From Candidatus Kaiserbacteria bacterium (GTDB lineage: Bacteria > Patescibacteriota > Minisyncoccia > Phycocordibacterales > UBA2100): a DNA stretch of 64,000 nucleotides. A program made the position numbers and the translations under genes. This document shows positions 21,088 to 64,000 of the stretch, one piece after another (position 1 is the first letter of the stretch; the number at the start of each line of letters is the position of its first letter). Below the pieces are notes generated by a model that saw only the letters and a program-made list of their open reading frames with translations, ran no database searches and had not been told where the DNA came from. The stretch covers positions 130,430 to 194,429 of the forward strand of contig CAVYCR010000001.1 of assembly GCA_963767115.1 (NCBI GenBank), read 5' to 3'.

Positions 21088-22567
21088 TTACGATACGTGG
21101 TGCTTTTTACGTAAGTCCTGTACCGCGGATTCCTCCTCTTGTTCGCGGCGCTCTTTGCCCGCCTCCCCTATTTTCTTAAGGTCTTCGTCGCTTAGTAAAC
21201 GCAGTGCTTCGACACGTTTAGCTAGGTATTCCTCGGTATTTTTCGTCGGATCATCGAGCACTTCCTCCAGAAGCGCATGCAGCATCCACCCTATCCTCGG
21301 GCCTGCACCCTCCCCTATTTCCATGATTTTGGCGCCATTTATCTTGAGCATACCGACCGTTATGGGGTCGCGTAGCGCTTCATCCACCATCGACATGTAT
21401 TTGCGCAGCCTGAAGGGTTGTTCTTTGGGACGGCCGGTGCCAACGCGGTCGCAGATGCGCAGGTCGAGTAGTTCCATGATGTGATCCTTCCCTACGTTGG
21501 CTATGATACGGCGCACAGCGCTCAGGGTGACGGTATCGGGGTCTGAGAAAAACATATGCCACCGGATCAGGGATACGACCGTATCAATCGTTTCCTTGGG
21601 GAAGCGCAGATCGCGCAAGATTTGAGCAGCCATTTTGGCGCCGACTACTTCATGGCCGTAGAAGGTCCAGTCTTTCTTCTCATCTGACCAGCGGCGGGTA
21701 GCAGGCTTCCCGACGTCATGCAGAAGAGCTGCGAGCCGCACCTCTAAAGGCCAATCTTTGTCTGCTGCGCACTGAAGGGAGCGCAGTAGGTGCTCGAAGA
21801 CGTCAAAAGAGTGCGCTTGGTTTTGGTCTATACCGATACCCTCTTCGAGCTCGGGTACTACGTACTTTAAAATACCCAGCTTCTGAGCCACATAAATGGC
21901 TTGCAGCGGCTGCTTGCTCAAGAGGATACGTACAAACTCATCGCGGACACGCTCGCGTGAAATTTTCTCCAATTGCGCTGCGTTCTCCGCTATGCCTTGA
22001 GCTGTCTGCGCATCGATCACGAAATCGAGCTCCGCTGCGATGCGCACCGCGCGCAACATGCGCAGCGCATCTTCATTGAAACGCTCAGAAGGGTTACCGA
22101 CCGCTACGACGACTCTGCGATGCAGGTCTTCCCTGCCGCTATGCTCGTCAACTATCTCGCCGGTATCGGGGTCGTATGCGATCGCGTTGACGGTGAAATC
22201 TCGTCGCTTGAGGTCATCGGAGAGCTTAGTGCTGAAGCGAACCTCGTCAGGATGCCGGGCGTTGGTATACCCGCTCTCGATGCGATACGGCGTCACCTCG
22301 ACTATCTTGAGGCGCGGGTCTATCTGACTCTGTAACGACGCCGACAGTCCCGTAGGAGTTCTCATAGAATGTCTCTGTAAAAAGGCCTTGAATATCTTCA
22401 GGCGTTGCATTGGTCGTAATATCCCAGTCTTTTGGCTCTCGTTTGAGCATGAGGTCGCGCACGCACCCTCCGACGAAGTAGGCTTCAAAACCCGCGCTTT
22501 TGAGTGCTGAGCTGACTGCCAAGACCTCAGACGGCACGTTGAGCGCAATCTTCTCCATGTACTTCAT
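21088..22567 (-). CDS. cca: CCA-adding tRNA nucleotidyltransferase with HD domain; reading frame broken once (+1) as sequenced
   Basis: The N-terminal piece (ORF 22247..22567: AYFVGGCVRDLMLKREPKDWDITT...FYENSYGTVGVV) and the rest (ORF 21088..22548: DPRLKIVEVTPYRIESGYTNARHPDEVRF...RDFTVNAIA...LLHDVGKP) are in different frames. The junction is near 22318-22335. The span is 1480 nt, i.e. 3n+1. Confidence 0.8.
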
Positions 22568-24679: not shown

Positions 24680-25414
24680 ATGGAAATAAAAGAGGCTCTT
24701 GCTGCACTTGGTCTGAATGAAAAGGAGGCAGCTGTGTATATGGCGCTTCTCGAGCTCGGGCGGGCTTCCGCTTACTCGGTTTCCACTAGGAGCGGGCTCA
24801 AAAAGCCAACGACCTATGTCATATTGGATGAGTTGATTCGCAAAGGTCTCGCAGTGCAGGTCCCGCGGGAGAAAAAGCAGCTGTATGTGGCGCGGTCGGC
24901 GGAAGAAGCCTTTGGGGTCGCACAAGAACGACTCGATCTCGCGAAAAAGAAACTACCCGAAATCCTTGCACTTACCAAGGGCGAATCGACGAAGGTTAGC
25001 ACGATTTACTTCGAAGGCATTCGTGGCATACAGCAGACGATGGAATACGGGCTCAAAGCGATGAAAGGGAAAGAGATCGTAGGATTTTATGCGATCGCGC
25101 CGGATGAAAACACGGATCTGAATGCATATTTCAAAGAATGGAACGACTTGCGCCACTCACTCGGCATCCGGATGCGCGGTATCGCGCCGGAACATGCGAA
25201 TCTCAAGGAATATCGAGATGACGACGCTGAAATGGGCCGTGAATTCAAATCAGTGCCATACGAGGAGTTCTCATCGGAGATCGCAATCGATGCGACCGAC
25301 ACGACGGTCCGCATTCAAGATTACAAGAATTTGCAAGGGATCGTCATTGAAAATAGGGAAGTCGCCAAGACTTTGCGGGAGATCTTCGAGATGGCATGGA
25401 AGAATTTGCGCTAG
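24680..25414 (+). CDS. TrmB-family transcriptional regulator
   Basis: N-terminal winged HTH LGLNEKEAAVYMALLELGRASAYSVSTRSGLKKPTTYVILDELIRKGLA is typical of the TrmB family. 244 aa. Confidence 0.8.
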   Translation: MEIKEALAALGLNEKEAAVYMALLELGRASAYSVSTRSGLKKPTTYVILDELIRKGLAVQVPREKKQLYVARSAEEAFGVAQERLDLAKKKLPEILALTKGESTKVSTIYFEGIRGIQQTMEYGLKAMKGKEIVGFYAIAPDENTDLNAYFKEWNDLRHSLGIRMRGIAPEHANLKEYRDDDAEMGREFKSVPYEEFSSEIAIDATDTTVRIQDYKNLQGIVIENREVAKTLREIFEMAWKNLR

Positions 25415-25478
25415 ATGTGGTATGGAACACAAAACCCGCCTTGCGGGCGAGTCTGTGCGTTCTCGAGAAAGTAAGAAT

Positions 25479-25756
25479 CTATTTCACTGCGTCCTTCAAG
25501 GTCTTCGAAGCGCGGAATTTCGGCACTTTCATCGTCTTGATCTGAATCGTCTGCGCCGGTGCGCGGGTTGCGACCCGTGCGACCGGCGCGGGTCTTCGCC
25601 TCAAAAATTCCCAAGCCTGCGATAGAAACTTCTTCGCCGCTGCTTGAGATGCTCGGTAATGGCCATGATGATCGCCTCTACCGCGCGCTCGCCGTCGGCC
25701 TTGGTGCAGCCGATCGTTGAGGCAACCTTCTCAACCAAATCCATTTTATTTGCCAT
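25479..25756 (-). CDS. hup: HU-family DNA-binding protein; reading frame broken twice (+1, +1) as sequenced
   Basis: Three consecutive frames together spell a complete HU protein: MANKMDLVEKVASTIGCTKADGERAVEAIIMAITEHLKQ | GEEVSIAGLGIFEAKTRAGRTGRNPRTG | QTIQIKTMKVPKFRASKTLKDAVK*. Junctions lie near 25636-25642 and 25551-25557. The span is 278 nt, i.e. 3n+2. Confidence 0.8.
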
Positions 25757-25896
25757 ATGTTTTATCGTTATGATGAATAAATGCATTATATCCCTCGACC
25801 AAACCTAAGTACCATTTTGAGCCCTATTTTGATGATGTCAATCAAAAATCATTGTGCTATCCACAGGTAGGAATTGGCTTAACAAAGGCTTGAATA

Positions 25897-26068
25897 TGGC
25901 AATTCGCCACGTCGCAGGGGTTTTGCAAACTGTTCGTACTTGCCCAAGTGACGTACCTAAAAAATTATCAAGGTGAAGCCTTGATAATTTTTTCTACTGC
26001 CAATTTCATAGCCGTCTCTTTTTCGCTGCGCGAGGTTCGCAAAACCCCTGCGACGTGGCGAATTGCCA
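25897..26068. repeat. Foldback element D (variant of the conserved-core family; 34-bp arms, 1 mismatch)
   Basis: Arms 25897-25930 and 26035-26068 are complementary except for one A/C position. It shares the termini ttttgcaaac ... gctgcgcgag-gttcgcaaaa with element B but has a different interior hairpin, aaaaaattatcaagg-tgaag-ccttgataatttttt. Its right arm abuts the rny stop codon at 26069. Confidence 0.8.
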
Positions 26069-27602
26069 CTATCTCGCGTATTCGATCACGCGTGTCTCGC
26101 GGATAACGCTCACTTTGATTTCGCCCGGATATTGCATCTCTTCTTGAATCTTGTCGGCGATGTCACGTGCGATCTTGCGCGCGTCGAGGTCGGTGACGTT
26201 TTCGGGCTTCACAATGACGCGGATCTCGCGACCGGCCGCTATCGCGTAACTCTTGTCGACGCCGGGAACGTTGTTGGCGATCGCTTCGAGTTCTTCGAGG
26301 CGCTTGATGTAGTTCTCGACGCTGTCGCGGCGCGCGCCGGGGCGGCCGCCGGAGATCGCATCGGCGACCTGCACGATCATGCTTTCGGGCGTCTCGTACG
26401 GATATTCCTCATGGTGTGCTTGCATAGCTTTTACGACTCGCTCGTCGACGCCGAACTTCTGCAAGTATACGACGCCCGATCTCGACGTGAGTGCCCGGCA
26501 CTTCGTGGTCGACTGCCTTGCCGATATCGTGAAAGAGCGCGCCGGCGCGTGCGATAGCAGGATCGGCACCAAGCTCCTCGGCAAGCATGCCTGCGAGGTG
26601 TGCGACTTCGACTGAGTGGTCGAGGACGTTTTGGCCGTAGCTCGTACGGAAGTAGAGGCGGCCGAGGATCATGATGAGCTTCGGGTCGAGGTCGGGGACG
26701 CGTGCGGCGTACGCTGCCTCCGCGCCTTTCTTCTTGATGATGGTGTTGATCTCAGCTTCGGCTTTCTGCACGGCCTCTTCAATCTTCGCGGGTTGGATAC
26801 GACCGTCGAGAATGAGATTCTCAAGCGCGATGCGCGCGACCTGGCGGCGTATCGGATCGTATGAGGAGAGGGTAATGGTGCCCGGCGTATCATCGACGAT
26901 GACGTCGACGCCGGTGGAGCGCTCGAATTGGCGGATATTGCGGCCTTCCTTGCCGATGATCTTGCCCTTGATCTCGTCGTTGGGAAGCGTGACGGTCGTT
27001 GCAAGTACATCTGAGACGACGGAATTGCCGAGGCGATGCACGGCGGTCGTGAGGATTTCCTTGGCGCGCTGCTCAAGGCGCTGGTCGCCCGAGATCTCAA
27101 GCTTGCGCATGCGGCTCTCGATGTCGCTCTCGTAGCGGCGTTCGACTGCTTTGATCAGCTCTGACTTCGCGTCATCAGCCGAGAGATTGGCGATGCGCTC
27201 GAGTTGTTCTTGCTGGCCGCGCGCGGCTTCCTCGAGAGCCTGGCGTGCCGCTGAGAGATCCTCGTTCTTGCGGGCGAGGTTTTCCTGTTCGGCATCGAGG
27301 TTGGTCTGGCGATTATCGAGCAATTCTTCCTTGCGGACGAGGCGTTCCTCGACGCTCTTGAGCCCGCGCTCGCGCTCTTTGAATTCGTCGCCGATCTCAC
27401 GGGCTTTTTCTTCGGCACGGGCCTGTGAATCTTCGGTGATCTGCTTTGCCTTTTCTTCGGCGTCAAGCATCATCTTGCGGACTTGCAGCTCCATCGAGCC
27501 GCGTTTGCCGAGACTAATAATATATCGGAGAAAGTAGCCTATTCCGACGCCCGCCAAACCCACAAGGGCGAGAAGAGCGAGCAAAAGTTTGACTGAAATC
27601 AT
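26069..27602 (-). CDS. rny: Ribonuclease Y; reading frame broken once (+1) as sequenced
   Basis: N-terminal TM segment, coiled coil, KH domain (IKGKIIGKEGRNIRQFE) and HD domain (ALFHDIGKAVDHEV) are in ORF 26409..27602. The remainder (QKFGVDERVVKAMQAHHEEYPYETPESMIVQVADAISGGRPGAR...) is in ORF 26069..26584. The junction is near 26458-26466. The span is 1534 nt, i.e. 3n+1. Confidence 0.85.
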
Positions 27603-27769: not shown

Positions 27770-27934
27770 GCCGCCGCTCTGGTTAGGTGTTTGCGAACCT
27801 CGCGCAGCAGATGTCACATCCCCACGTCATATAGTAGTGGAAAACAAAAACCGCCCAGCAGGGCGCTTTCTGTTTTGAGGGTCGGTATCTAAGCTATTGC
27901 GGTATGTTCGCAAACACCTAACCAGAGCGGCGGC
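27770..27934. repeat. Foldback element E (conserved-core family; 29-bp perfect arms)
   Basis: Arms 27770-27798 and 27906-27934 are perfect complements. The 107-nt interior is near-identical to those of elements G and B (B inverted). It ends 5 nt from the clpP stop (minus strand). Confidence 0.85.
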
Positions 27935-27939
27935 AGCAA

Positions 27940-28542
27940 CTAACTCAACACCTTATCGACAATACCGTACTTCAGGGCCTCCTCGGCCGTCATGAAGAAG
28001 TCGCGGTCGACGTCGTTCTCGATCTTTTTGAGGGCTTGGCCGGTGGATGCGGAGAGAATCTTGTTGAGACGCTCACGGAGCTTCAAGATCTGCTTAGCTG
28101 TGATTTCGATATCGGCAGCCTGACCTTCTGCTCCTCCGTGTGGCTGATGGATCATGACCTCGGCGTTTGGCAAGATATAACGCTTGCCCTTCTCGCCCGC
28201 AGCGAGCATTACCGCTGCCATACTTGCTGCCATGCCGACGCATACGGTAGAGACGGGCGGTTGCATATGGCGCATGGTGTCGATGATAGCAAGGCCGGCC
28301 GTGACTACGCCGCCGGGGGAGTTGATATAGAGGGAAATCTCTTTCTTCGGGTCTTCAGACTGCAAGAAGAGCAACTGGGCTATCACGAGGTTGGCCACTT
28401 CGTCGTTGATCGGGCCACCGAGGAAGATGATGCGCTCGCGGAGCAAGCGGCTGAAGATGTCGTATGCGCGTTCGCCCATCGAAGTCTTCTCGACGACCAT
28501 GGGTACGAGCATTTGTGCTTTGATCTGAGGGATGTTTTGCAT
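27940..28542 (-). CDS. clpP: ATP-dependent Clp protease proteolytic subunit
   Basis: Full-length match to ClpP: [22 protein letters not shown]...[18 protein letters not shown]...[14 protein letters not shown]...MIHQP. Confidence 0.95.
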
Positions 28543-28595
28543 GTCGAAAGGGTATCAAAGAAAAGATACGCGAGCAAATCCTCCCATGTTAATCG

Positions 28596-29012
28596 ATGGG
28601 AATGCTATCTGGAAAATGTGAGAATCTTATATATACTTCCCGTATGGAACACCTAGAAGGTAGACAGCAACCACCAATCAAAATCGAAGAAGCTTGGGAA
28701 AAAGATCCCCATATTTCGGATCCGAGAAAGTTCTATAGTGTACAAACAATGTTTGCACAGCTTCGCTATGCTAAGCGCCACCCGGAACAAAAGGTAGATC
28801 TAGACAATCGTACTGGAAATCCGAAAGAGTTGAGACTTGCCATTGGTGCTTCTTGGACGCAACAGGATTCAGAAGATTTTGAAAAATTTATAGGGGAACC
28901 TGCTCGTGCAGAATACCTAAACGCCGACCTAAAAAATAGGCAATCGATCGAGGCACTACTCGAGCTATTTTTTGCAGAGTATCCAAGAGCTAAAGAGGAA
29001 ACTCGGCATTGA
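28596..29012 (+). CDS. Hypothetical protein
   Basis: 138-aa ORF in an AT-richer segment. No RBS or family recognised, and the start is uncertain (28596 or 28644). Confidence 0.35.
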   Translation: MGMLSGKCENLIYTSRMEHLEGRQQPPIKIEEAWEKDPHISDPRKFYSVQTMFAQLRYAKRHPEQKVDLDNRTGNPKELRLAIGASWTQQDSEDFEKFIGEPARAEYLNADLKNRQSIEALLELFFAEYPRAKEETRH

Positions 29013-29071
29013 AAAGACCTGTGTTCCCGATGGGCTCGGAGCTGTCTTCGTGCAGTGTAGACATGCCGCGT

Positions 29072-29464
29072 CTATAATGCGGTACTTCCTTCCTCAAGCC
29101 ATCTGGCAATCTCGTCGATGTGAGGCTTTTGAGTAACAATCCAGATCATAAATGTCTCTATCTCGCCCGATTGCGGCGCTAGGTCGTATTCATTGAGTTT
29201 CAAAAAATATGCGCCAATGAGATAGGAGGTGCGTTTGTTCCCGTCGACGAATGTGTGGTTGCGCGCGATACTATCGATGAGCGCTGCTGCTTTTGCAAAC
29301 GGCCCGGCAAACATTTCTTCGCCGCCGTTTGATGTTTTTGGTCGCTCTAAGCACCTCAATAAACTATTCATGTCGCGCACGCCGAGCGTACCATTGGTAA
29401 GTCCCAGAACGGTTGCATGAAGCGCGAGTGCTTCCTCGATGTGTATGTATCTTATTGACCCCAT
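29072..29464 (-). CDS. doc: Doc (death-on-curing) / Fic-family toxin
   Basis: The HTFVDGNKRTS motif (Fic/Doc HxFx[D/E]GNxR), 130 aa, located directly downstream of an AbrB-type antitoxin gene. Confidence 0.85.
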   Translation of the reverse strand: MGSIRYIHIEEALALHATVLGLTNGTLGVRDMNSLLRCLERPKTSNGGEEMFAGPFAKAAALIDSIARNHTFVDGNKRTSYLIGAYFLKLNEYDLAPQSGEIETFMIWIVTQKPHIDEIARWLEEGSTAL

Positions 29465-29471
29465 AAAATTG

Positions 29472-29711
29472 TCATTTGTCGGAAAGTGCCTCGAAATCCT
29501 TGCGATATTTTTCTACGTAAGCGGTTGCCCAAGTGACTGCATCGGCAATCTTGGGGTTCTTGCCTTCACGCACGCGTTCAACTACCACGCGATCGGGACC
29601 TTCCGCGCGCACATCCACTGCTTGTCCAAGCTCAAAACCGAACTCTTCCGCCAGAGGCTTGGGGAATACGACGCCGATTGAGCTGCCGATATTGATTATC
29701 TTTTGAGCCAT
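29472..29711 (-). CDS. AbrB/MazE/SpoVT-family antitoxin (Phd-like partner of Doc)
   Basis: 79 aa. IINIGSSIGVVFPKPLAEEFGFELGQAVDV is a swapped-hairpin AbrB-type DNA-binding fold motif. There is an 8-nt gap to doc. Confidence 0.75.
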   Translation of the reverse strand: MAQKIINIGSSIGVVFPKPLAEEFGFELGQAVDVRAEGPDRVVVERVREGKNPKIADAVTWATAYVEKYRKDFEALSDK

Positions 29712-29771
29712 ATATTTAGACTTCCAAGTGATTATAATGCAATTATAATCATCTTACTTTCGAAATGCAAG

Positions 29772-30872
29772 CTATGTGCTGTGCTGGTGGGTGGTGTGGC
29801 CTACCGGCTCGGTGTTGCCCTCGAGGAAGCGGAGGGTCATTTCGTTGCGAAGGGCATGACGGACGTGGGCGCGGAGGGATTCACGGTCGGCTTGCGGGTA
29901 GTGCTCTTGGGCGTGGTCGAGCTCGTGTTCGACGACGTCGGTTTCCGGCTCGATGTTCTCTTTGCGAGCTATTTCGGCAAGTAGTAGCCGCACTTTGGCG
30001 CGGTTGTCAGCAGCGGGACGCCATTCCTCGCGGAGCTCCTCGCGGGTCTTCTTGGTATCGATGAGGTACTTCTCGTAGGTCATGCGCATGCGCTGCAGAT
30101 CGTCCTTGAGGCGCGACTCGATCTCATCGAGCTCGTAGCTGAGGAGTGACGCTGGGTAGCGGACGGTCGAGGCCTTAACTATCTCGTCGAGAATCGCGTT
30201 GCGAAGCTTCTGCTGCGCCTGCATCGTCTTTTCGTTCATTATATTGTCATGCAACGCCTCGGAGAACTTCGAAGCGCTCTCGTAGCCGACCGATTGCGCG
30301 AATGCATCGTCAAGCTCGGGCAGCTCGTCCGCTTTCATCTCGCGGGATTCCTCAGCGGCCTTCGGCGGCTCGACGCCGTTCTCGATCTTGTCGATGCGTG
30401 CTCGCTCGCGGCGCAGGTGTAAGAGGGCTTCGTCGTGCTCCGCGTCGGTCACGGTGATCTCTTCTTTGCTTTCACGCTGTTTCTTGGCGATCTTCGCGTA
30501 GTCGCCAAGCTCGATCTGCGGCGCTAGGCCTGCACGCGCGGTGAAATGAAGCGGCTTGCCGCTTTGCGGTTCGTCGGTCGACACACGCGGCGTCTCGACT
30601 ATGGCGATGCTTTCCTTGGCGAGAATTTCGGGCAACTCTTCTTGGATGGCGCGCTCAGCGGCGCGGCGCATGATCTGATCCTCGCCGTATATAGCGAGGA
30701 TCTTATCGACCGGCGCCTTGCCGGGGCGGAAGCCGTCGATCTTCGCGGTCTTCTGCATGTCCTTCAAGACATCGGCGCGATATTTCTCAAGCGAGGCAGC
30801 GTCGATCTGCGTGGAGATTTCCGCTTCCCAGTTTTTCTCGTCCTTTGTAACTCTCACATCGCTATATGACAT
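29772..30872 (-). CDS. tig: Trigger factor (short form without recognisable FKBP/PPIase domain)
   Basis: The N-terminal ribosome-binding domain with IDGFRPGKAP (compare the E. coli IDGFRKGKVP signature) and a C-terminal chaperone domain. 366 aa versus ~430 aa for typical Tig. Confidence 0.8.
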   Translation of the reverse strand: MSYSDVRVTKDEKNWEAEISTQIDAASLEKYRADVLKDMQKTAKIDGFRPGKAPVDKILAIYGEDQIMRRAAERAIQEELPEILAKESIAIVETPRVSTDEPQSGKPLHFTARAGLAPQIELGDYAKIAKKQRESKEEITVTDAEHDEALLHLRRERARIDKIENGVEPPKAAEESREMKADELPELDDAFAQSVGYESASKFSEALHDNIMNEKTMQAQQKLRNAILDEIVKASTVRYPASLLSYELDEIESRLKDDLQRMRMTYEKYLIDTKKTREELREEWRPAADNRAKVRLLLAEIARKENIEPETDVVEHELDHAQEHYPQADRESLRAHVRHALRNEMTLRFLEGNTEPVGHTTHQHST

Positions 30873-30918
30873 TGCGCGAGTTTACCCTGTGGAAGCACTT
30901 GCGTCTAGGTTGTTGGGT

Positions 30919-31155
30919 CTACGGCAACGCCGATGAAGTACTGGTCCGCACAGGTAGAGTGGTCGTACCAGCAGGAATGTATGGCACTTGGTCGATCGGA
31001 TTGCTGACACTATAGAAAGCCTTGTGCCAGACAAAGCACAGATCACCTACTATCAATACGAGCAAAATGATCACGATACCGATAGTTGGCCCGGCCTTTT
31101 TTGGAGGTGCGGGGAGCAGATGATCAGGGTCTTTGATAGGTTTGAGATCACTCAT
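30919..31155 (-). CDS. Small hypothetical membrane protein
   Basis: 78 aa with a single TM helix (PTIGIVIILLVLIVGDLCFVW). No RBS recognised. Confidence 0.4.
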   Translation of the reverse strand: MSDLKPIKDPDHLLPAPPKKAGPTIGIVIILLVLIVGDLCFVWHKAFYSVSNPIDQVPYIPAGTTTLPVRTSTSSALP

Positions 31156-31220
31156 GCCGACAGTATAGCTTTCAGGTTTCAGTTGTCAGCTTTCAATGAT
31201 AGGGGACAACCCCGATTCAA

Positions 31221-31757
31221 TTAGCGGGCGAATTTCTCTTTGTAGAGCTCGACGGATTTCTTGACCGCTTCGAGCGCGGCAGCGCGATCACGGATGCCGT
31301 TGATCTTGACCGGCGCGGGCTTACCCTTGAGCGCCTTGTAGGTCTCGAAGAAGTGCTGCCATTCTTTCAGGGTATGCTTGTTTATATCGGCTAGGTCCTT
31401 CACGTCTTCCCAGCGCTTATCATTTACCGGAACGCAGATTATTTTTGCGTCAGATTCACCGCTGTCAACCATATCCATTATGGCGATCGGACGAACCGTG
31501 ACAAGAATGCCGGTCGCGATGGGGAACGTTGCCAGTATCAAGATGTCGAGGGCGTCACCGTCTTCCCATAAGGTTTGCGGTGCGAAACCATACTCCATCG
31601 GATACGGCGCGTCGGAATAATTAGCGCGGTCGAGCTTGATGAGACCAGTCTCTTTGTCGATCTCGTATTTGTTATGCGATCCTTTCGGGATCTCGACGAT
31701 CACGTTGATTTCTTCGGGCGCATCATCGCCAAGGGGAACGTCGTGCCAGAGGTTCAT
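31221..31757 (-). CDS. ppa: Inorganic pyrophosphatase (family I)
   Basis: The internal ATG at 31757 gives MNLWHDVPLG...INVIVEIPKGSHNKYEIDKETG...YPMEYGFAPQTLWEDGDALDILIL, which are canonical family I PPase motifs. Confidence 0.9.
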   Translation of the reverse strand: MNLWHDVPLGDDAPEEINVIVEIPKGSHNKYEIDKETGLIKLDRANYSDAPYPMEYGFAPQTLWEDGDALDILILATFPIATGILVTVRPIAIMDMVDSGESDAKIICVPVNDKRWEDVKDLADINKHTLKEWQHFFETYKALKGKPAPVKINGIRDRAAALEAVKKSVELYKEKFAR

Positions 31758-32185: not shown

Positions 32186-33575
32186 TTATTCAGTCTCTGT
32201 CTTCGGTTCGACATCGACCTCAGAAGGCTCTTCGCCGCCACCCTGGTCGGTCTCTGCGTTGACGGCATCCGACGGGACGTCGCGGTCTTGGTTGATGGCT
32301 TCGGCGTTCTCGACACCAGTGTCAGCTGCTTCGTCATCGTCACCGGAAATATCCGACTTCGCTTCGGCGAACGCGTCCTGCGTGTTGATCGAACCTTCAT
32401 CGGTTATTTCCAGTACGGGCACGGTGCTTTCAACGGGAGTCTCGGCCTTCGGCGCGACAGTAGCGACTGATTCGCCGCCGACGCCGCGAATGTCGATCTT
32501 CCAGCCGGTAAGCCGTGCCGCCAAGCGGACGTTCTGCCCGCCGCGGCCGATTGCGAGCGACTGCTGGTCTTCGTCGACCTGTACGATCGCGCGGCTTTCA
32601 TCTTCAAAGAGCTCGATGTCGAGAATCTGTGCGGGCTTGAGCGCTTCTTTGACGATAATCGCCCGCGTTTTCGCTCCATTCCACGACGTCGATCTTCTCG
32701 CCGCCGAGCTCCGAGGTGACGACCGCGACGCGCACGCCGCGCTGGCCGACCAAGGCGCCGACCGGGTCGACGTGCTCATCGTGAGCTCTTGACCGCGATC
32801 TTGGCGCGACTTCCCGGCTCGCGTACGATGCCCTTGACCTCGACGACGCCACTTGCCATTTCGGGCACTTCGGTCTCGAAGAGTTTCGCCAAGAAGCGCG
32901 GGATGCGAGCGAGAAAGACGGATGAAGGTGCCGCGAGCGCCTTCGTCGACGCGCAAGAGCAGCGCGCGGACGCGCTCTCCTTGGCGATACCGCTCGCCGG
33001 GGATCTGCTCGTCGTAGGGGAGGATGGCGGTCGCGCGGCCGAGGTCGATGAAGAGATTGCCGCGCTCGAAGCGCTGCACATGGCCGGTGACGATCTCGCC
33101 TTCGCGCATCGCCGTACTCCTCGATGATAGAAGCGCGCTCGGCTTCGCGGATCTTCTGCATGATCACTTGCTTCGCCGCTTGCGCGGCGATGCGGCCGAA
33201 ATCGTCTCGCGTCTCGAGGGGGAAGGAGATCTCCTCGTCGAGCTGCGCGTCGCGCTTGATGCGACGTGCGTCCTCGATCATGATGTGCTGCTCGGGGTTG
33301 AAGCGGGAGCGGTGGTCTTCGTCGCTCTTCTGCTCTTCGTCTTCGCGGCGCACGAGCGTGTCGTCGACGACGATCTTGGCCTGGCGGAACTCCATGTCGC
33401 CGGTCTCGGGGTTAAACGTTGCGCTGACAATTTGTCCGCGCTTGCCGTATTCGCGGCGGTAGGCGGCGGCGAGCGCCGTAGCGAGCGCTTCAACCACGCT
33501 TTCGCGGCTGATGCCGCGCTCGGCCTGCAGCTCGTCGAGCGCGCCGTTTAGTGTCTTGAGGTCAAAAAGTGCCAT
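32186..33575 (-). CDS. nusA: Transcription termination/antitermination factor NusA; reading frame broken four times (+1 each) as sequenced
   Basis: Successive conserved NusA segments sit in rotating frames: N-terminal domain to REAERASIIEEYGD | REGEIVTGHVQRFERGNLFIDLG (S1) ...SRSHP | FLAKLFETEVPEMASGVVEVKGIVREPGSRAKIAVK | HDEHVDPVGALVGQRGVRVAVVTSELGGEKIDVVEWSENA | IIVKEALKPAQILDIEL...LAIGRGGQNVRLAARLTGWKIDI (KH2) plus an acidic tail. Junctions lie near 33103-33112, 32896-32903, 32781-32790 and 32660-32668. The span is 1390 nt, i.e. 3n+1, which fits four extra nt. Confidence 0.85.
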
Positions 33576-34153: not shown

Positions 34154-35909
34154 ATGTACATTTCTGACACGCATCTCAAATCCTTTCTCGCTGACGCGGG
34201 TCTTGTCTCCGCAAAAGACTTCGACGCCGCAGAAAAAGAAGCGAAAGACGGCGGCAAGACAGTCGGCGATGTCTTGACCGCCAAGAACGTGATCGGCGAA
34301 GACGAACTGCGCCGCACGTACGCATACATCCTCGGCATCCCGTTCGTCTCGCTCTCTGGCACGATGATCAAATACGACACGCTCTCGCTGATCCCCGAGC
34401 CGGTCGCGCGTCGCAACAACATCATCGCCTATAGCAAGAAGGCCGACGAGCTCGAAGTAGCGATGCTCGACACCGACGACCTCGCCGCGATCGACTTCAT
34501 CAAGAAGAAGACGCGGCTCAAGGTGCTCCCGAGGCTCACCGACGCCGCCTCGATCAAGACGGCGCTCAAGCTCTACCAGCAGGGACTCAAGGACAACCTT
34601 GGCGACGTGATCGAGCGTGAGACGGCAGCGCTCGCGCAGTCTGCCGCCGCTGCGGGCTCCGGCGAGGCAAAGGAAGAGGAGCTCAAGCTCGCCGAGGGCG
34701 TGCCCGCGGTGCGTATCGTCGACACGTTGCTGCGCCACGCCAACGCGCAGGGCGCCTCCGACATCCACATCGAGCCATTGGAGGGCTCACTCCTCATCCG
34801 GTATCGCATCGACGGCATCCTGCATGACGCGATGGAGCTGCCCAAGCACGCCGCCGCTGCTGATGACTGCGCGCATCAAGGTACTCGCGAGCATGAAGCT
34901 CGACGAGAAGCGTCTTCCCGCAAGATGGCCGCTTCACCGCCGAGGGTGACGGAGAGAAAGTCTCTTTCCGCGTCTCGATCTTGCCGACGTACTTCGGAGA
35001 GAAGATCGTCATGCGCTTGCTGCGCGACAACGTCTCGGGCTTCACGCTCGAGTCGGTCGGCTTCCATGGCACTCGCGCTCGAGCGCATGCATGAAGCGGT
35101 GCAAGAAAACGACCGGCCTGATACTCACCACGGGCCCCACCGGCGCGGGCAAATCGACGACACTCTACACGCTCCTCGACATCGTCAACACGCCGAACGT
35201 GAACATCTCCACCATCGAAGACCCGATCGAATACCAAATGGCGCGCGTCAACCAGACGCAGGTGCGCCCCGAGATCGGCTTCACCTTCGCACAAGGCTTG
35301 CGCGCGCTCGTACGCCAAGACCCAGACATCGTCATGGTCGGCGAGATCCGCGACAAAGAGACGGCAAGCCTCGCGGTCAACGCCGCACTCACCGGGCACT
35401 TGGTGCTCTCTACTCTTCACACCAACTCTGCGGCGGGTGCTGTGGCGCGCTTGCTCGACATGGGTATCGAGCCCTTCTTGCTCGTCTCGACCTTGCGGAT
35501 CATCATCGGCCAGCGCCTCGTGCGCAAGCTTGATGCCACCAAGGAGAAATACGAACTCTCGCGCGACGAGCAGGGGAGCTTGGAGCGCGTAGTCGATCAA
35601 GGTGTCGTCTTGAAAGCGCTCAAGGATGAGAAGATCGTGCCCGCAACCGCCACTTGGAAAAACGTGCCGTTCTTTCACCCTAAGGTAAGCGAAGAACACC
35701 CGTCGGGATACACCGGCCGCGTCGGCATCTACGAAGTATTACCCGTCACCTCGACCATCAAGGAACTGATCATGAGTAACGGCACCGGCGATATGATCGA
35801 GGCGCAAGCGCGCAAGGAAGGTATGCTCTCCATGAGCGAAGACGGAATCTTCAAAGCCGCTCAAGGTGTCACTACTATTGAGGAAGTGCTGCGTGTAATC
35901 ACGGAATAG
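34154..35909 (+). CDS. pilB: Type IV pilus assembly ATPase PilB (GspE family); reading frame broken four times (+1 each) as sequenced
   Basis: N-terminal T2SSE_N-like domain to [21 protein letters not shown] | [20 protein letters not shown] | [50 protein letters not shown] | [10 protein letters not shown] | [23 protein letters not shown] (Walker A) ...[12 protein letters not shown]...LVLSTLHTN. Junctions lie near 34856-34863, 34916-34922, 35066-35072 and 35098-35104. The span is 1756 nt, i.e. 3n+1. Confidence 0.85.
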
Positions 35910-36462
35910 TATAGTAAATCAGTCAATATTCGGAGGTGACGCATCTGAAATTCGGCAACATAAGCATATCGACTCATGTCCGGAGAAACTGTTGCTCGAC
36001 GCAAATCGTGACTTTTATAAGTGCCCATTGTAGTCTTGTAATCGGACTACTTATAGAAACCCGTTCAGGCGAACGGGTAATCTGAGCTCGGAGGTACCAG
36101 TGATGAGAGAATTGCCGGACGGCACGACGATCACCCTTGAAATGGTTCGAAGGAATCTCAAGGTAAATCCTCCGGGGTAAAGTGTCTTGCATATGGAGAT
36201 CGGAGACGCGTACAACGCACCCTTCTTCATCGCGTACCTGCTCGAACGTCTTGAGGATGCGCAGCGGCCTTGGTGGCGAAAAGCATTAGCGCGAGTCGGG
36301 CGATGGTATCGCTCTCACTCAGCGGCAGCAACAAATGCTGAGCGAGGAAAACAACACAGATCGGTAACAGTGATTGATTCGGCAGATGAGCGGGACGCTT
36401 GCACTCTCGCGGCAAGATAGCTTACGAAAGTCACCAGTAGGCCATGTTGACCGAAGTACATC

Positions 36463-36493
36463 ACGCGCGTCCGAAAGACGCGCGTTTTGATTT
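36463..36493 (+). terminator. Strong intrinsic terminator
   Basis: acgcgcgtc-cgaaa-gacgcgcgt (9-bp GC-rich stem) followed by TTTTGATTT. Confidence 0.8.
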
Positions 36494-36541
36494 GAGAGAA
36501 ACTGTTTCCCTCGTACTAAAGGGATAATTGGAACCAAAAGA

Positions 36542-36574
36542 AAAGGCCAGAGCGTTTTTAGCGCTCTGGCCTTT
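36542..36574. terminator. Bidirectional intrinsic terminator
   Basis: aaaaggccagagcg-tttttag-cgctctggccttt: a 10-bp stem flanked by A- and T-runs, downstream of the minus-strand gene ending at 36604. Confidence 0.75.
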
Positions 36575-36603
36575 CTGGTTAGGAACAATTCGATGCTGAA
36601 ACT

Positions 36604-37197
36604 TTATACCCCAGAGACTTGGTGAATTTGCGCCAAGCGCCCTTGAGCTTCTTTCAGTTGCTGCTCGAGATCATTCGCGACTTGCTCAAAGTGGCGGCAG
36701 CGAGCAGCAAGTTTGATTTCGCGTCGAGCCGCCGAAGAAATCTTGATGAGTTGCTCGTGCGTAATTATTCCCGCAACGAACTTCAAGATGCTCGATGCGT
36801 CAGCGACGCGCACATTCGGCGACGCACTCTTCGACGAGGTGAATCGGACGTCCAGCGATGTTGCCTCGATTCTGTCGCCATAGACGACGAAGTCTTTATC
36901 CGCGCCGACTGCCTTATCAGGGTCTTCGGGATCTTCCACTGCGATCAGCTTATCGCCATCACGGATGACATGGATCACCTTAAGATCCCTCATATGTGTG
37001 GTCCTCGCCATGAGGACTATGATGTGCGCCTTCTCATTTTCCGGTGGGAGAATGCGGAAGGTGCGAGCCAGTGAGGTCGCTCCGACCCGCAGTGTTACGG
37101 GGCATGTTGCTCCGAGCAGCTCGACTTCGTCATAGAGGCCAAGTGATGCAGTGATAACATTGCTCTTGGCCTTGTAGGTAAGTTTCCAAGAAGACAT
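36604..37197 (-). CDS. Hypothetical protein (197 aa) with C-terminal coiled coil
   Basis: The internal ATG at 37197 (MSSWKLTYKAK...) has GGAG about 10 nt upstream. The ORF track extends to 37278. No family recognised. Confidence 0.45.
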   Translation of the reverse strand: MSSWKLTYKAKSNVITASLGLYDEVELLGATCPVTLRVGATSLARTFRILPPENEKAHIIVLMARTTHMRDLKVIHVIRDGDKLIAVEDPEDPDKAVGADKDFVVYGDRIEATSLDVRFTSSKSASPNVRVADASSILKFVAGIITHEQLIKISSAARREIKLAARCRHFEQVANDLEQQLKEAQGRLAQIHQVSGV

Positions 37198-37569
37198 CGT
37201 CTTTTTCTCCGTATGGAAGAGCATCACCCTTCCTGCGCTACTGGACCTGCCGTAACGCCTTGCAGGGACATCGTCCATAAGTATATTACATCGTTATATA
37301 ATTTTGTCAAATTATCATTATCCGATCTATTTCTCTCCCGAATTGTAACCAACCATTCAATTCAAAAACCAACTTGTTCCAGTTTTGTCCCACTTGGGTC
37401 ACAAAAGCGCGAGTGTGAAAAGACTGAACTGCTTCAGTCTTTTCCGCTTTTGTGAAGACGGAGCGATGTGAGCTCAGCAGAGCGAGCCGCGAGTCCGGGG
37501 CTGGAAAATTTTCGAGTGTCGACGAGAAAATTATTGTGGCTCACGTAGCTCTTCTGATAAGATTTGGTG

Positions 37570-38073
37570 ATGCAAAGACTGATAATTATCCGGGGATATC
37601 CGGGTTCAGGTAAGACAACTGCCGGCAAGCTCTTAGAGCAGAATGGCTGCGGGACTTTTATCGATCACAATGCGATTCTGAATTTTATTGCAGGAATTAT
37701 TGGTGATGATGAAGATATCCAGAAAGAAATACACGATTTGGAAAAAGCGATGGTTCGTAAGCTTTTACTTGATAAAAGATCAGTGATCGTCGCGAGAGGT
37801 TTTAGTAGCGAACGCAGAATTAACGAATACGTTGATATTGCGAAACATCTCAACGTTGAGGCACTCGTCTTCAGACTTTCAGTTCCCATGAATCTGCTAG
37901 AGAAAAGAGTAGAAAATGATGAACGAAAGTCTGACTTTAATCCGACGACGAGGCCCGATGCGTTGCATAAGTGGGTTAGCTCAAATCCTCTTGAGGAATA
38001 CCCAGGAGAGATTGTGATCGACGCACAAAACAGTGCTCAGGAGGTCTTTTCAGCGATAAGAGCATATCTTTGA
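37570..38073 (+). CDS. P-loop NTPase / AAA-family kinase-like protein
   Basis: The Walker A motif IIIRGYPGSGKTTAGK lies near the N-terminus. At ~167 aa it resembles small nucleotide or zeta-like kinases. Confidence 0.65.
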   Translation: MQRLIIIRGYPGSGKTTAGKLLEQNGCGTFIDHNAILNFIAGIIGDDEDIQKEIHDLEKAMVRKLLLDKRSVIVARGFSSERRINEYVDIAKHLNVEALVFRLSVPMNLLEKRVENDERKSDFNPTTRPDALHKWVSSNPLEEYPGEIVIDAQNSAQEVFSAIRAYL

Positions 38074-38082
38074 GACTGACAT

Positions 38083-38230
38083 ATGCAAATAAAAAGCGTC
38101 GGAATAATAGGCTTTGGCGACTTCGGCCAGTTTCTTTTTACGCTTGCTAGAGAGCGCTTTCCAGACTTGCAGGTCAAAGTCTTTTCTTCGCGCAAAAATC
38201 CAGATAACAAAGATTTCTTTTCGTTTGTGC
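38083..38230 (+). pseudogene. Possible remnant of an NAD(P)-binding (Rossmann, prephenate-dehydrogenase-like) gene
   Basis: MQIKSVGIIGFGDFGQFLFTLARERFPDLQVKVFSS has a GxGxxG dinucleotide-binding start. Beyond ~50 aa the ORF turns into low-complexity sequence antisense to the 38276..38596 gene. Confidence 0.3.
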
Positions 38231-38275
38231 CACCTGAGAGAAACAGTTTCTCTCATGCTCAAAAAGTAAGCCGCA

Positions 38276-38596
38276 TCAGTCATGATGCGGCTTATCGAAT
38301 CCGGCTTCGTGGTCTGCGCGGACGTGGTTTCTGGTCATCGTATTATTCCAGACACTATGTAGCTCAATATAGGCGAATACCCAACCCATCCATCGCGCGG
38401 CCTTAAGAGCTTCATCGATGGATGTGGTGTCCATTCGCCCGACCTCGTCGCACATCCAGAGGAGATACGGAAGCGGAGCAAGCTGTCCCTCTATAATCTC
38501 TGAGCATGCGGCCTGCGTACCGGGGTAGTGCTCCTCTATCGCAGCCCGGAGCGCTGTGATGGTTCCTCGATAGAACATAGTACCTCTCATCTCCAT
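38276..38596 (-). CDS. Hypothetical protein (106 aa)
   Basis: The ORF has plausible composition (EALKAARWMGWVFAYIELH). No RBS seen and no confident family. Confidence 0.4.
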   Translation of the reverse strand: MEMRGTMFYRGTITALRAAIEEHYPGTQAACSEIIEGQLAPLPYLLWMCDEVGRMDTTSIDEALKAARWMGWVFAYIELHSVWNNTMTRNHVRADHEAGFDKPHHD

Positions 38597-38694
38597 AGAA
38601 GACTAGGCAAAACCTACCATATATAAGAACCGTTTCTCTCATGTTCTGTGCTTTTTCTGCCAAAATATGCTAACGTGCCGGCGGTCACGACCAG

Positions 38695-38931
38695 TTGGCC
38701 AAAACAAGAAGGTTGGTTCTAATGACAAGAGAAAACGAAGTCAAATCCACGGTCAGAGACTCTTTTCTATCCCACTGCGTCGAAAATCGTACTCACTTGA
38801 CGCTATTCCTTATGAACGGGGTCAAGCTGCAAGGGTGTATCACCGAATTTGATGGCGTTGGCGTCCTGCTTGAGCGTGACCGTAAGAAGCAGTTCGTCCA
38901 CTATGGGGCGATATCATCTTTCTTTCCGTGA
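38695..38931 (+). CDS. hfq: Hfq-like (Sm-fold) RNA-binding protein
   Basis: VRDSFLSHCVENRTHLTLFLMNGVKLQGCITEFDGVGVLLERDRKKQFVHYGAISSFFP parallels the Hfq Sm1/Sm2 pattern (QD.FLN..R......V.I.L.NG..L.G.I..FD.F..LL.....Q.VYKHAIST..P). The start may be the ATG at 38722. Confidence 0.65.
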   Translation: MAKTRRLVLMTRENEVKSTVRDSFLSHCVENRTHLTLFLMNGVKLQGCITEFDGVGVLLERDRKKQFVHYGAISSFFP

Positions 38932-39074
38932 CCGTCGGCTGATTCAGCGCAACAAGAAAAGCCCGCGTTTTCGGAAGGAATGCGGGCGTATTTTCTTGTT
39001 TATGCACTCCGGTTGTTGCGCGGACAAGGTGAGGTGTGTAATAGTGTCTGAAGCCGGCAAAAAGGAGGCCGCTC

Positions 39075-39278
39075 ATGTTACGGAGACGCAATGATTCGAG
39101 GTACGAAGTACCACCGTCGGTCATCATCGAAGCGACTAAACGTTCAAGATGGGAAGACGGATTTCTCGACGGTAAAAACGGGAGGGAATCTGCTAGCGAC
39201 GACGCGAGTTATATGAATGGTTTTTGGGCAGGAAAACTGAAGAGGGCGATCGAATCTCCAATGGTTGTTCACATGTAG
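39075..39278 (+). CDS. Hypothetical small protein (67 aa)
   Basis: AAGGAGG lies 7 nt upstream of the ATG. No family recognised. Confidence 0.45.
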   Translation: MLRRRNDSRYEVPPSVIIEATKRSRWEDGFLDGKNGRESASDDASYMNGFWAGKLKRAIESPMVVHM

Positions 39279-39378
39279 AGTATATTCGACCCTGCATTAG
39301 GAGAAAATTTTTGTACAACGCATCGCGTATCGGCGCGCTCGGGATCGAGCGCGCTTTTTTCATATATAATTAATCGCG

Positions 39379-40599
39379 ATGGCGCACTTTTCTTACACGG
39401 CACAGAAGACCGACGGCGAGACGTACCAGGGCGTCGCCGAGGCTCCCGATCGTTTCCAGCTCTACGAGATCATCCGGCGCGAAGGCGGCAAGGTGATCTC
39501 GGTCGACGAGCAAAAGCATACCGGCGTGTGGAGCGCCGACTATTGGAACCAGAAGATGACGCGCGTGAAGGAGTACGAGAAGATACTCTTCGCGAGAAAC
39601 TTGGGCGCCATGCTCTCCGCCGGTCTCGCGCTCTCCCGCGCGCTCTCGGTCATGGAGCGCCAGACCAAGAACATCAAGCTCAAGGCGATCATCGCGGACA
39701 TTGGCAGCGAAGTGCGCCGGGGCAATCCGCTCCACGCGGGGCTCGAGAAGTTTCCGAAGGTATTCCCGAAGCTCTTCGTCGCGATGGTGCGCGCGGGCCA
39801 GGAGGGCGGCGACCTGCCCGCTTCGCTCACGCTGGTAGGCGACCAGATGGAGCGCATGTACGACCTCAAGAAGAAAGTGAAAGGCGCCCTGATCTACCCT
39901 TCGATAATCGTGGTCGCGATCGTTGGCATCGGTATCGTAATGATGATCGTGGTCGTGCCGACTCTCGCAGCTACCTTTGAACAGAGTCATGAGACATTAC
40001 CGGCCTCGACGCAGTTTGTCATCAACGTAAGCAACTTCCTCGTGCATTACACCGTGCTTGCGATAGGTGGCATGATCGGGTCCGTGGTGCTTGTGTATCT
40101 TGCTAGCAAGACTAAGGTGGGGGGTCGCGCTTTTGAGTTTCTCTTTTTGCATACACCGGTTGTCGGCAATCTCATGCGCGAGGTGAACGCAGCTCGTACC
40201 GCGCGCACGCTCGGCTCGCTGCTTGCCTCCGGCGTCGACGTGCTTACCTCACTCACGATCGTGCACGAGGTCTTGCAAAATTCGTATTTCAAGCAAGTGA
40301 TCGACGAAGCGCAGGCCGCGGTACGCGCCGGCGAGCAGCTCTCGACGGTCTTCGAGAAGCGCGTCGATCTCTACCCGCCCTTTGTAGGAGAGATGATCGC
40401 GGTGGGCGAGGAGACCGGCGCCACGACCGAGATGCTCAAGCGCATCGCCGTGTACTACGAAGACAATGTCGACCGTTCCACCAAAGACATGTCGACGATC
40501 ATCGAACCCTTCCTCATGATCATCATCGGGTGCGCTGTCGGCTTCTTTGCGGTCTCTATGATCACGCCGATCTATCAGCTCTCGTCTAATATAAATTAA
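39379..40599 (+). CDS. pilC: Type IV pilus / type II secretion platform protein (PilC/GspF family)
   Basis: 406 aa with two T2SSF repeats (ILFARNLGAMLSAGLALSRAL...; LGSLLASGVDVLTSLTIV...) and three TM segments. It ends IIGCAVGFFAVSMITPIYQL. Confidence 0.9.
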   Translation: MAHFSYTAQKTDGETYQGVAEAPDRFQLYEIIRREGGKVISVDEQKHTGVWSADYWNQKMTRVKEYEKILFARNLGAMLSAGLALSRALSVMERQTKNIKLKAIIADIGSEVRRGNPLHAGLEKFPKVFPKLFVAMVRAGQEGGDLPASLTLVGDQMERMYDLKKKVKGALIYPSIIVVAIVGIGIVMMIVVVPTLAATFEQSHETLPASTQFVINVSNFLVHYTVLAIGGMIGSVVLVYLASKTKVGGRAFEFLFLHTPVVGNLMREVNAARTARTLGSLLASGVDVLTSLTIVHEVLQNSYFKQVIDEAQAAVRAGEQLSTVFEKRVDLYPPFVGEMIAVGEETGATTEMLKRIAVYYEDNVDRSTKDMSTIIEPFLMIIIGCAVGFFAVSMITPIYQLSSNIN

Positions 40600-40638
40600 C
40601 GAGCTTCTCGGGACTAGTCGCTAGCTTCTAGTGAAATC

Positions 40639-42372
40639 ATGAAAAAACAGCTTTCAACTGTCCCACGCGGCCTCACGCTCATCGATACGATGGTCGGCAT
40701 CGCGCTTATGGTGCTGGTCTTCGTCGGGATCTACGGCACCTTCCAGCTGACTGTCGATGTAGTGACCAACGAAAAGGCACAAGCCGGTGCGCTCGGGCTT
40801 GCCGATGAGCGGATGGAATACCTGCGCTCGCTCGGCTACAGCGCTGTCGGCACGGTAGGCGGTGTGCCCTCGGGGAATCTCCCGCAGACGGAGAGTCTCT
40901 CGCTCAACGGGATTAGTTACACGCGACGTACCTATATCGAATACGACGATGATCCGGCAGATGGTCTGGGTAGTAGCGATACCAACGGCATCATCGAAGA
41001 TTACAAATCCGCCAAGGTAGAAGTGCTCTGGAGCTTGAAGGGGATCACGCACAGCGTCGTGCTTGTCGCACGCTTCTCTCCGACGACTGGTATGGAATCA
41101 GCGGTGCCCGGCGGCACGCTCATAATCAATGCAGTCAATTCTGTCGGAGCGCCGATCTCCGGCGCGTCTGTAGCAATCGTGGCAACCTCTGCCTCGCCCA
41201 CGGTCAACATAAATACCTTCACCAATGCGAGCGGCACCGCGACCGTACTCGGCGCGCCCGCGTACTCGGGCTATCAGGTCACGGTGACTGCTTCCGGCTA
41301 TTCGACCGCAAGCACCTACAGCGTGACGAGCCAAAACACCAACCCCAATCCCGGCAATCTTTCGGTCACCAAGAACCATACGACATCCGCAACTTTCGCG
41401 ATCGATCTCCTCGGCACCAAGACCGTTAACACTTGGACACAGGTACTCAGTGGCACATCGACCGACCCCTTCAACAACACAAGCGAGATAGCAACATCAA
41501 CCGGCATTTCTGTGACTGGTGGCGCGGCACAACTTGCCGTAGGCTCGACTACTGGCGAAGTACAATCGGTCGCGTTTAGTCCTTCATATCTTGCCGATTG
41601 GGGGACCTTCACCTGGAGCGATACTCAGCCTGCGAGCACCTCGATCCGCTATCGACTCTACAGCGGCGACGGCACGACCCTCGTTCCTGATTCATATGTG
41701 CCAGGAAATGCCGCGGGTTTTGTGAGCGGCAGCGTGAGTCTTTCCGGTGTTCCAACCAGCACCTATCCTTCACTGCGCCTTGATGCGGTCTTCTCTTCGG
41801 CAAGTACTACGACGACACCATCGCTCACGCTCTGGAGTATCACCGACTCGTACGGCCCTGTGCCGCTTCCCAACATCGCCTTCAATCTCCAAGGCGGCAA
41901 GACAATCGGCAGCGGCCCCGGCGGTACGCTTTACAAATACAGTCAGAACTTCAGCACCGCGGGCAACGGGAGCATCACCATCCCAGGTCTTGAGTGGGAC
42001 AATTACACGGTCACGATCAGCGGCTCAAGCGGCTACGATGTGGCTTCAGCTTGCAACCCGCAGCCCGAGAGTCTTTCGCCGGGATCTACCATGACCAGCA
42101 ACTTCTATCTCGCGGCGCATACGGGGAACTCGCTTCTAGTAGACGTGCGCGGTGCGACAAGTGGCGCCCTGATCCCGAACGCCTCGGTACAGCTCTCGAT
42201 CGCGGGCTACAATAAGACGATACCGACTGATAACTGCGGACAGGCGTTCTTCTCGGGTGTCTCCGCATCAAGTAATTATTCGATCAGTGTGTCTGCGCCA
42301 GGATATTCGACATACAATGGAAGTGCGGTGAGCGTGAACGGCACTTCGAGACTCTCAGTGTCGTTGAATTAA
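40639..42372 (+). CDS. Large pseudopilin-like protein (prepilin-type N-terminus, Ig/CarboxypepD_reg-like repeats)
   Basis: MKKQLSTVPRG|LTLIDTMVGIALMVLVFVGIYG is a pilin-like leader and helix. The remainder is rich in T/S/G beta-type repeats (GAPISGASVAIVATS..., GALIPNASVQLSIAG...). Confidence 0.7.
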   Translation: MKKQLSTVPRGLTLIDTMVGIALMVLVFVGIYGTFQLTVDVVTNEKAQAGALGLADERMEYLRSLGYSAVGTVGGVPSGNLPQTESLSLNGISYTRRTYIEYDDDPADGLGSSDTNGIIEDYKSAKVEVLWSLKGITHSVVLVARFSPTTGMESAVPGGTLIINAVNSVGAPISGASVAIVATSASPTVNINTFTNASGTATVLGAPAYSGYQVTVTASGYSTASTYSVTSQNTNPNPGNLSVTKNHTTSATFAIDLLGTKTVNTWTQVLSGTSTDPFNNTSEIATSTGISVTGGAAQLAVGSTTGEVQSVAFSPSYLADWGTFTWSDTQPASTSIRYRLYSGDGTTLVPDSYVPGNAAGFVSGSVSLSGVPTSTYPSLRLDAVFSSASTTTTPSLTLWSITDSYGPVPLPNIAFNLQGGKTIGSGPGGTLYKYSQNFSTAGNGSITIPGLEWDNYTVTISGSSGYDVASACNPQPESLSPGSTMTSNFYLAAHTGNSLLVDVRGATSGALIPNASVQLSIAGYNKTIPTDNCGQAFFSGVSASSNYSISVSAPGYSTYNGSAVSVNGTSRLSVSLN

Positions 42373-63421: not shown

Positions 63422-64000
63422 ATGTCTCGTGATTATCCATTGGAGAAAGTCCGCAACTTCGGCATCGTCGCGCACGTCGACGCAGGGAAGACCACCACGT
63501 CGGAGCGCATCCTTTTCTACACCGGCGAGAGCCACAAGATCGGCGAAGTGCACGACGGCAACACGGTCACCGACTGGATGGAACAGGAGCGCGAGCGCGG
63601 CATCACCATCACCGCCGCCGCCATCACCTGCTTCTGGAACCCGACCTACATGGGCGCCGACACTTCGCAAAAGGTCCGCTTCAATATCATCGACACGCCG
63701 GGGCACATCGACTTCACTTCTGAAGTGAAGCGCTCGATGCGCGTGCTCGACGGCGCGGTCGTCGTCTTCGACGGCGTCGCAGGCGTCGAGCCGCAGTCCG
63801 AGACCAACTGGCGCTATGCCGAAGAGGCCAACGTGCCGCGCATCTGCTACATCAACAAGCTCGACCGCACGGGCGCGTCGTTTGAAAAATCCTACGCATC
63901 CATCCTCGACCGGCTTTCCAACAAAGCCGTGCGCTTGCAGCTCCCGATCGGTGCTCGAGGACCAATTCGAAGGCGTCATCGATCTCTTGCACATGAAGGC
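63422..64000 (+). CDS. fusA: Elongation factor G (N-terminal part; continues beyond window); one +1 frame break near the window end
   Basis: Absent from the ORF track because there is no stop in the window. [35 protein letters not shown]...[14 protein letters not shown]...INKLDR. After LQLPIG the conserved [15 protein letters not shown] is one frame ahead, with the junction near 63950-63958. Confidence 0.9.

Follow-up and report, generated by a model that had tools for sequence, protein, structure and literature searches.

In a 64-kb stretch of DNA from an uncultured CPR bacterium, Candidatus Kaiserbacteria (the window, i.e., the whole stretch that was analysed), the nusA gene is spread over several reading frames, and the question is whether such breaks are a real feature of the organism or errors in the deposited sequence. 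The window has 13 frame breaks in six genes (four each in nusA and pilB, two in hup and one each in cca, rny and fusA), and each break consists of exactly one surplus nucleotide; the nine outside nusA were confirmed by DNA alignments after a frame-aware comparison with the genes of 80 related loci. The DNA alignments bore out the gene-by-gene count given in the earlier note on this DNA, as well as its statement that all the breaks are net gains of one nucleotide (13/13). The affected genes and the positions of the surplus bases are the following:

33575..32186, minus strand: nusA, five frame segments, four surplus nucleotides
33107-33110, minus strand: nusA junction 1, GATG (coding strand), a single codon in relatives (GAG in 16/30)
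32899-32902, minus strand: nusA junction 2, CCCG, a single Pro codon in relatives, mostly CCG
32781-32784, minus strand: nusA junction 3, TCAC instead of a single codon, at a variable residue
32654-32657, minus strand: nusA junction 4, TATC, where relatives have TAC, TAT, TTC or TTT
21088..22567, minus strand: cca (CCA-adding enzyme), one surplus base within GATA at 22321-22324
25479..25756, minus strand: hup (HU), two surplus bases, in the 4-mers 25639-25642 and 25551-25554
25640 and 25554, minus strand: the surplus bases of hup, CA[G]CGG and GGC[G]CAG respectively, both missing from the independent contig L086 (see below)
26069..27602, minus strand: rny (RNase Y), one surplus base at 26462 (CTT[G]CAG; 4-mer 26462-26465), also missing from L086
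34154..35909, plus strand: pilB-like T2SSE ATPase gene, four surplus bases, at 34859-34862, 34917-34920, 35071-35074 and 35099-35102
63422..64000, plus strand: 5' part of fusA, which continues beyond the window, one surplus base within GCTC at 63953-63956

There were 12 different 4-mers across the 13 sites, CCC-G being common to two of them; those at the ten sites that L086 does not cover were GATG, CCCG (twice), TCAC, TATC, GCTG, ACTC, GTGC, GATA and GCTC. Dropping the 13 bases gave full-length proteins, which could be aligned gap-free to intact CPR/Kaiserbacteria orthologues (81-93% identity), and the best matches of the corrected NusA, RNase Y and HU were proteins from metagenome-assembled genomes (MAGs) of Candidatus Kaiserbacteria / Paceibacterota (81-97% identity).

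The nusA gene had been described in the earlier note as requiring four consecutive +1 shifts through frames X, X+1, X+2, X and X+1. Three-frame translation agreed, placing the segments on the minus strand in frames 0, 1, 2, 0 and 1: the N-terminal domain in frame 0, S1 in 1, the start of KH1 in 2, the remainder of KH1 in 0, and KH2 plus the acidic tail in 1. The junctions proposed there (33107, 32900, 32786 and 32664) were accurate to about 10 nt. Removal of one base from each of the four 4-mers restored a protein of 461 amino acids with Pfam scores past the cut-offs for NusA_N (1.7e-31), KH_5 (3.3e-26) and S1 (2.4e-8); KH_NusA_C was sub-threshold, at 25.9 bits against a cut-off of 34.2. Against 11 intact orthologues the corrected protein aligned without gaps at residues 1-370 (81-84% identity), and gaps were confined to the variable, acidic C-terminal tail. 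When the nusA DNA was aligned with that of 30 relatives, exactly four columns were occupied by the window alone, and the window had no gap. By its domains and alignments the corrected product is a NusA, with NusA_N, S1 and KH architecture and full-length collinearity with its orthologues.

None of the relatives compared carried any of the 13 insertions (30 relatives for nusA, 25 for pilB, 23 for rny, 18 for hup, three for cca and two for fusA). A search for the same breaks in sibling genomes had been among the checks suggested earlier, and it came out empty with up to 30 relatives per gene. The best match for Rny, with 93% identity, came from a different sample and was intact. In a collection of 5.8 billion proteins, neither NusA nor Rny had a near-identical match that approached full length, and the frameshifted nusA ORFs (323 and 307 aa) had no exact match on record. 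The frameshifted fragments of RNase Y (397 aa) and PilB (272 aa) were recorded only from the NCBI/ENA contig of 200,265 bp, to which exact protein look-ups assign the window, and not from Logan.

As an independent sequence we used the Logan k-mer assembly of run ERR11630394, in which 18.2 kb could be compared with the window. The population represented by the window is present in this assembly, since three contigs (L081, L085 and L082) matched it at 100%, 100% and 99.97% over 12.2 kb. The contigs compared were the following:

L081, window 35332-42401: 0/7070 mismatches, no indels
L085, window 19401-20654: 0/1254 mismatches, no indels
L082, window 27840-31733: 3893/3894 identical, one mismatch, no indels
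L084, window 59357-63562: 4195/4206 identical, 11 mismatches, no indels
L086 (1751 bp), window 25232-26987: 98.98% identity, 13 SNPs and four indel events

The first four contigs reach none of the break sites. The fifth, L086, was found by a homology search with the corrected HU, which recovered from the same run an intact HU of 91 aa (P0249, 97% identity). This contig spans three of the 13 break sites (rny and both hup sites) and is without the surplus base at all three, so that it has an intact hup and, for rny, an intact run of the final 305 codons. The fourth indel event is an additional 2-nt surplus of the window in the spacer upstream of hup. In all four indel events between the window and Logan the surplus is on the window side, and every one of them lies in the SNP-dense contig L086, an arrangement with p = 8.6e-5 under a uniform model. 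Of the 11 mismatches with L086 that fall in coding sequence, about 8 were synonymous, as read from codon contexts, which argues that they are real polymorphisms under purifying selection and not noise, and that L086 represents a sibling haplotype with ~0.7% divergence (98.98% identity with indels counted); at least two strains would therefore coexist in the ERR11630394 sample. Strictly, what is intact is a 99%-identical strain, since L086 is not provably the window's own haplotype. The earlier note held that independent sequence devoid of the extra bases would speak against any biological mechanism, and at three of the 13 sites this sibling haplotype is such a sequence.

The remaining ten sites, in nusA, pilB, cca and fusA, were covered by no independent contig in either exact protein look-ups or homology searches. 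Exact look-ups of the reconstructed intact Rny, Hup (four variants) and Cca (four variants) gave no match, and neither ppa nor one gene adjoining hup had a record; the true Hup of the Logan assembly differs from the reconstruction by strain SNPs and surfaced by homology search only. The contig L084 ends 393 nt ahead of the fusA break. At the 5' end of fusA (63457-63528) it differs from the window at six positions in 72 nt, four of them C/T differences at third codon positions, as compared with five differences in the preceding 4.1 kb, which suggests either a haplotype with local divergence or a patch of recombination in fusA. The sole mismatch in the 3.9 kb of L082, at window position 28266 in clpP, is nonsynonymous (Met in the window, Val in L082) and is further evidence of strain microdiversity.

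The breaks are neither random in direction nor evenly spread. The observation of 13/13 breaks in a single direction has a two-sided p of ~2e-4, and their clustering, noted earlier as short patches, was matched in 0/100,000 simulations. Local G+C at the break sites averaged 0.61 versus 0.526 for the window, and the nusA patch, with 64-66%, lies at the 98th-99th percentile of 300-nt windows. Some 45 genes neighbouring the broken ones are intact. A codon-usage scan of the whole window detected no further frame break and no break of the deletion type, and no 1-nt indel occurred within any of eight control genes; both results agree with the earlier remark that the long neighbours are intact. The one single-base column among the controls, column 8 of the alignment for tig, lies at its 5' border and looks like alignment-edge noise. 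A candidate extra break at 57.97-58.9 kb (near 58.3 kb) was rejected, as two separate genes lie there. The longest homopolymer at any junction was CCC, and no motif was common to the 13 sites besides G/C-rich contexts. The GC/GCA context that the earlier note had seen at many sites was present at the three resolved ones (T[G]CAG, A[G]CGG and C[G]CAG), the only sites at which G before C was verified. A codon-phase test gave no significant preference (3/12 best-scoring corrections at codon position 2), and with this null result we dropped the claim that the insertions are restricted to wobble-adjacent slots. A version of the explanation based on cross-mapping in hyper-conserved segments is likewise unsupported because, compared with gene-internal 61-nt windows, the junctions do not lie at the highest DNA conservation.

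We then considered the codons at which the breaks occur. In a null test, random bases were put at random positions of the corrected genes, and we counted the single-base deletions that gave only residues found in the window or its relatives. At least three such natural readings were available at 10/11 real junctions versus 18% of random insertions (p = 3.5e-7), and at least two at 11/11 versus 58% (p = 0.002). The breaks therefore sit on naturally variable codons, which fits an origin at polymorphisms and would not be expected of random read errors. At the three resolved sites both alleles can be named: CTTG in rny is CTT, the Logan allele, plus TTG, both encoding Leu and both found in relatives; CAGC in hup is CAC (His, Logan) plus CAG; and GCAG in hup is CAG (Gln, in Logan and in the closest relative, L083) plus GCG (Ala, the commonest residue in relatives). 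The remaining ten 4-mers are likewise readable as two overlapped natural codons.

We infer from these patterns how the surplus bases may have been introduced. An assembler or polisher, likely one with a long-read, graph-type consensus, would have collapsed two haplotypes, and alleles differing at or beside the wobble base would have been aligned as one insertion and one deletion. If the consensus then retained the bases of both alleles (e.g., CTT+TTG giving CTTG, CAC+CAG giving CAGC, GCG+CAG giving GCAG and CCC+CCG giving CCCG), one base would be added every time. Such a step would explain why the breaks share one direction, lie outside homopolymers, come with no other damage and cluster in polymorphic patches.

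Taken as a whole, the evidence leads us to a probability of about 0.85 that the 13 surplus bases arose as consensus errors in the 200-kb metagenome contig as deposited, where two strains were collapsed and the codon alleles of both retained. The 13 one-base frameshifts are almost certainly assembly errors and not a new way of reading genes; the frame breaks are not a real biological feature. The surplus base is missing from an independent assembly at 3/13 sites, none of them in nusA, it is missing from relatives, and the corrected ORFs are conserved. For the four sites in nusA, which no Logan contig crosses, the same origin is proposed by analogy, and for the ten uncovered sites together an artefact would be the expected reading, given the analogy, the lack of these insertions in relatives and the gap-free reconstruction. 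Insertion-biased consensus error, preferred to recoding in the earlier note, is supported by the intact sibling contig at three sites and by the relatives, none of which carries an insertion; as to the source of the error, the evidence favours patches of two collapsed close haplotypes, which are a likelier cause than the low coverage suggested there.

Both parts of this explanation have precedents. Gene calling suffers frameshift errors from the consensus indels of long-read assemblies (Sereika et al. 2022, PMC9262707), and the window resembles such cases (PMC9262707; proovframe preprint 10.1101/2021.08.23.457338) in that indels of one base break up conserved genes, correction gives ORFs of full length and the indels are missing from independent sequence. 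The classic errors, however, are homopolymer indels in both directions, whereas here there are insertions only, outside homopolymers, at polymorphic codons and in SNP-dense patches; the lack of the homopolymer context typical of nanopore or 454 indels points to another error mode. Strain-oblivious long-read assemblers merge strains of ~98.7% identity into one consensus (Strainberry paper, PMC8302730), and in our case two haplotypes of ~99% identity coexist in the sample, with a single contig standing for both. That paper describes the collapse and the mixed consensus; the 4-mer holding both alleles at the cost of one added base is our own proposal.

An artefact without strain mixture, i.e., a generic bias of reads or consensus towards insertions in G+C-rich patches with poor coverage, would account for the G+C-rich break sites (the nusA patch among them) and for the shortness of the Logan contigs, which end 229-1668 nt from the uncovered sites, and long-read consensus indels are well known (PMC9262707). 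It does not account for a set of sites with none in homopolymers, no deletions and no excess of substitutions at conserved residues, nor for the strong enrichment on naturally variable codons and the restriction of the observed indels to the SNP-dense contig; moreover, the region at 44-50 kb has a similar G+C content (56-58%) and is free of breaks. We regard this explanation as improbable, at roughly one chance in ten.

It is very unlikely that the insertions are real mutations in a decaying or defective lineage in which nusA, fusA, rny, hup, pilB and cca have been pseudogenised. The room for this explanation comes from the sole independent contig over any site, which belongs to a slightly different haplotype, so that the intactness of the window's own haplotype was not directly observed. 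Against it stand 13 frameshifts in six genes that include the essential nusA and fusA, in proteins which after correction have no stops, deletions or loss of invariant residues, just as the earlier note had reported no secondary decay. Changes after inactivation should also vary in kind and direction, yet all 13 are +1, and the genes around them are intact.

Recoding of real bases would have to resemble one of the known systems, and it resembles none closely. In prfB-type +1 frameshifting, a CUU-UGA-like slippery codon is combined with a stop and with an SD stimulator. The likeness is that expression would require a +1 shift between frames intact on both sides; here, in contrast, no slippery P-site codon with a stop of the prfB/oaz type is shared, no SD stimulator is present, the sites are not conserved in relatives, and there are 13 heterogeneous sites, four of them in nusA. 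The earlier note had likewise reported no shared slippery motif, no in-frame stop as at prfB and no SD-like stimulator, and the 12 different 4-mers support this. In endosymbionts, transcriptional slippage rescues frameshifts at long poly(A) tracts, and it needs long homopolymer tracts. Many seemingly frameshifted essential genes still under selection are common to those genomes and to the window, but the breaks have no long A/T homopolymer, CCC being the longest run at any site. The variety of the quadruplets, 12 in all, speaks against quadruplet decoding by a suppressor tRNA. None of the four tRNAs encoded in the window has an expanded anticodon loop. Perfectly kept frames on either side of each break, and CCC-G at two sites, a context slightly prone to +1 slippage, are what can be said for efficient +1 ribosomal frameshifting, quadruplet decoding or transcript deletion editing, and we give these next to no credence when the 4-mers share no motif, shift-codon stop or upstream SD-like element, the sites are unconserved in up to 30 relatives and in the 99%-identical sibling haplotype, four serial shifts in nusA would multiply any inefficiency, and the anticodon loops of the window's four tRNAs are normal. 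It is just as hard to believe that the window haplotype truly has the 13 bases and makes full-length NusA, EF-G, RNase Y, HU, PilB and CCA-adding enzyme by motif-independent +1 bypass or transcript correction, next to a 99%-identical sibling without them.

Several other features of the window were recorded. Four tRNA genes (Arg-TCG, Gly-GCC, Pro-TGG and Gly-TCC) lie between cca and hup at 22618-24109; they have normal Rfam scores, and no insertion artefact is evident in them. The spacer between rny and hup (25897-26068) contains a 34-nt inverted repeat, 97% complementary, with arms 104 nt apart that enclose a perfect 15-nt hairpin (AAAAAATTATCAAGG/CCTTGATAATTTTTT). The closest relative, L083, lacks a segment of ~146 nt of this spacer, and the Logan sibling haplotype has it; in appearance the segment resembles a small MITE-like insert or a nested terminator. 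Downstream of T2SSF, an exact direct repeat of 30 nt (42372-42401 and 43064-43093; ATGAGAAAACAGCTTTTAGCTTCTAGCT...) marks the starts of two consecutive genes, probably with paralogous pilin-like N-termini, and one copy coincides with the end of the Logan contig L081. In the rpsL-rpsG-fusA (str) operon (60660-63422), genes with Pfam matches to 23S_rRNA_IVP, SHOCT and ParE-toxin are located between rpsG and fusA, according to the annotation of L084. A complete type I restriction-modification system (HsdR, HsdS and HsdM by Pfam) occupies 9450-15982, an island with 45% G+C in a genome of ~53%, which suggests horizontal acquisition.

For the biology of the organism the frame breaks have no significance; their practical meaning concerns the quality control of metagenome-assembled genomes. 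Where strain mixtures are collapsed, conserved genes can come to carry series of +1 'frameshifts' that all go in one direction and lie outside homopolymers; these can be mistaken for pseudogenisation or recoding, and they reduce apparent gene completeness. The signature described here, a 4-mer composed of two overlapping natural codon alleles, with a net gain of one base and only in SNP-dense patches, could be used to flag or repair such errors.
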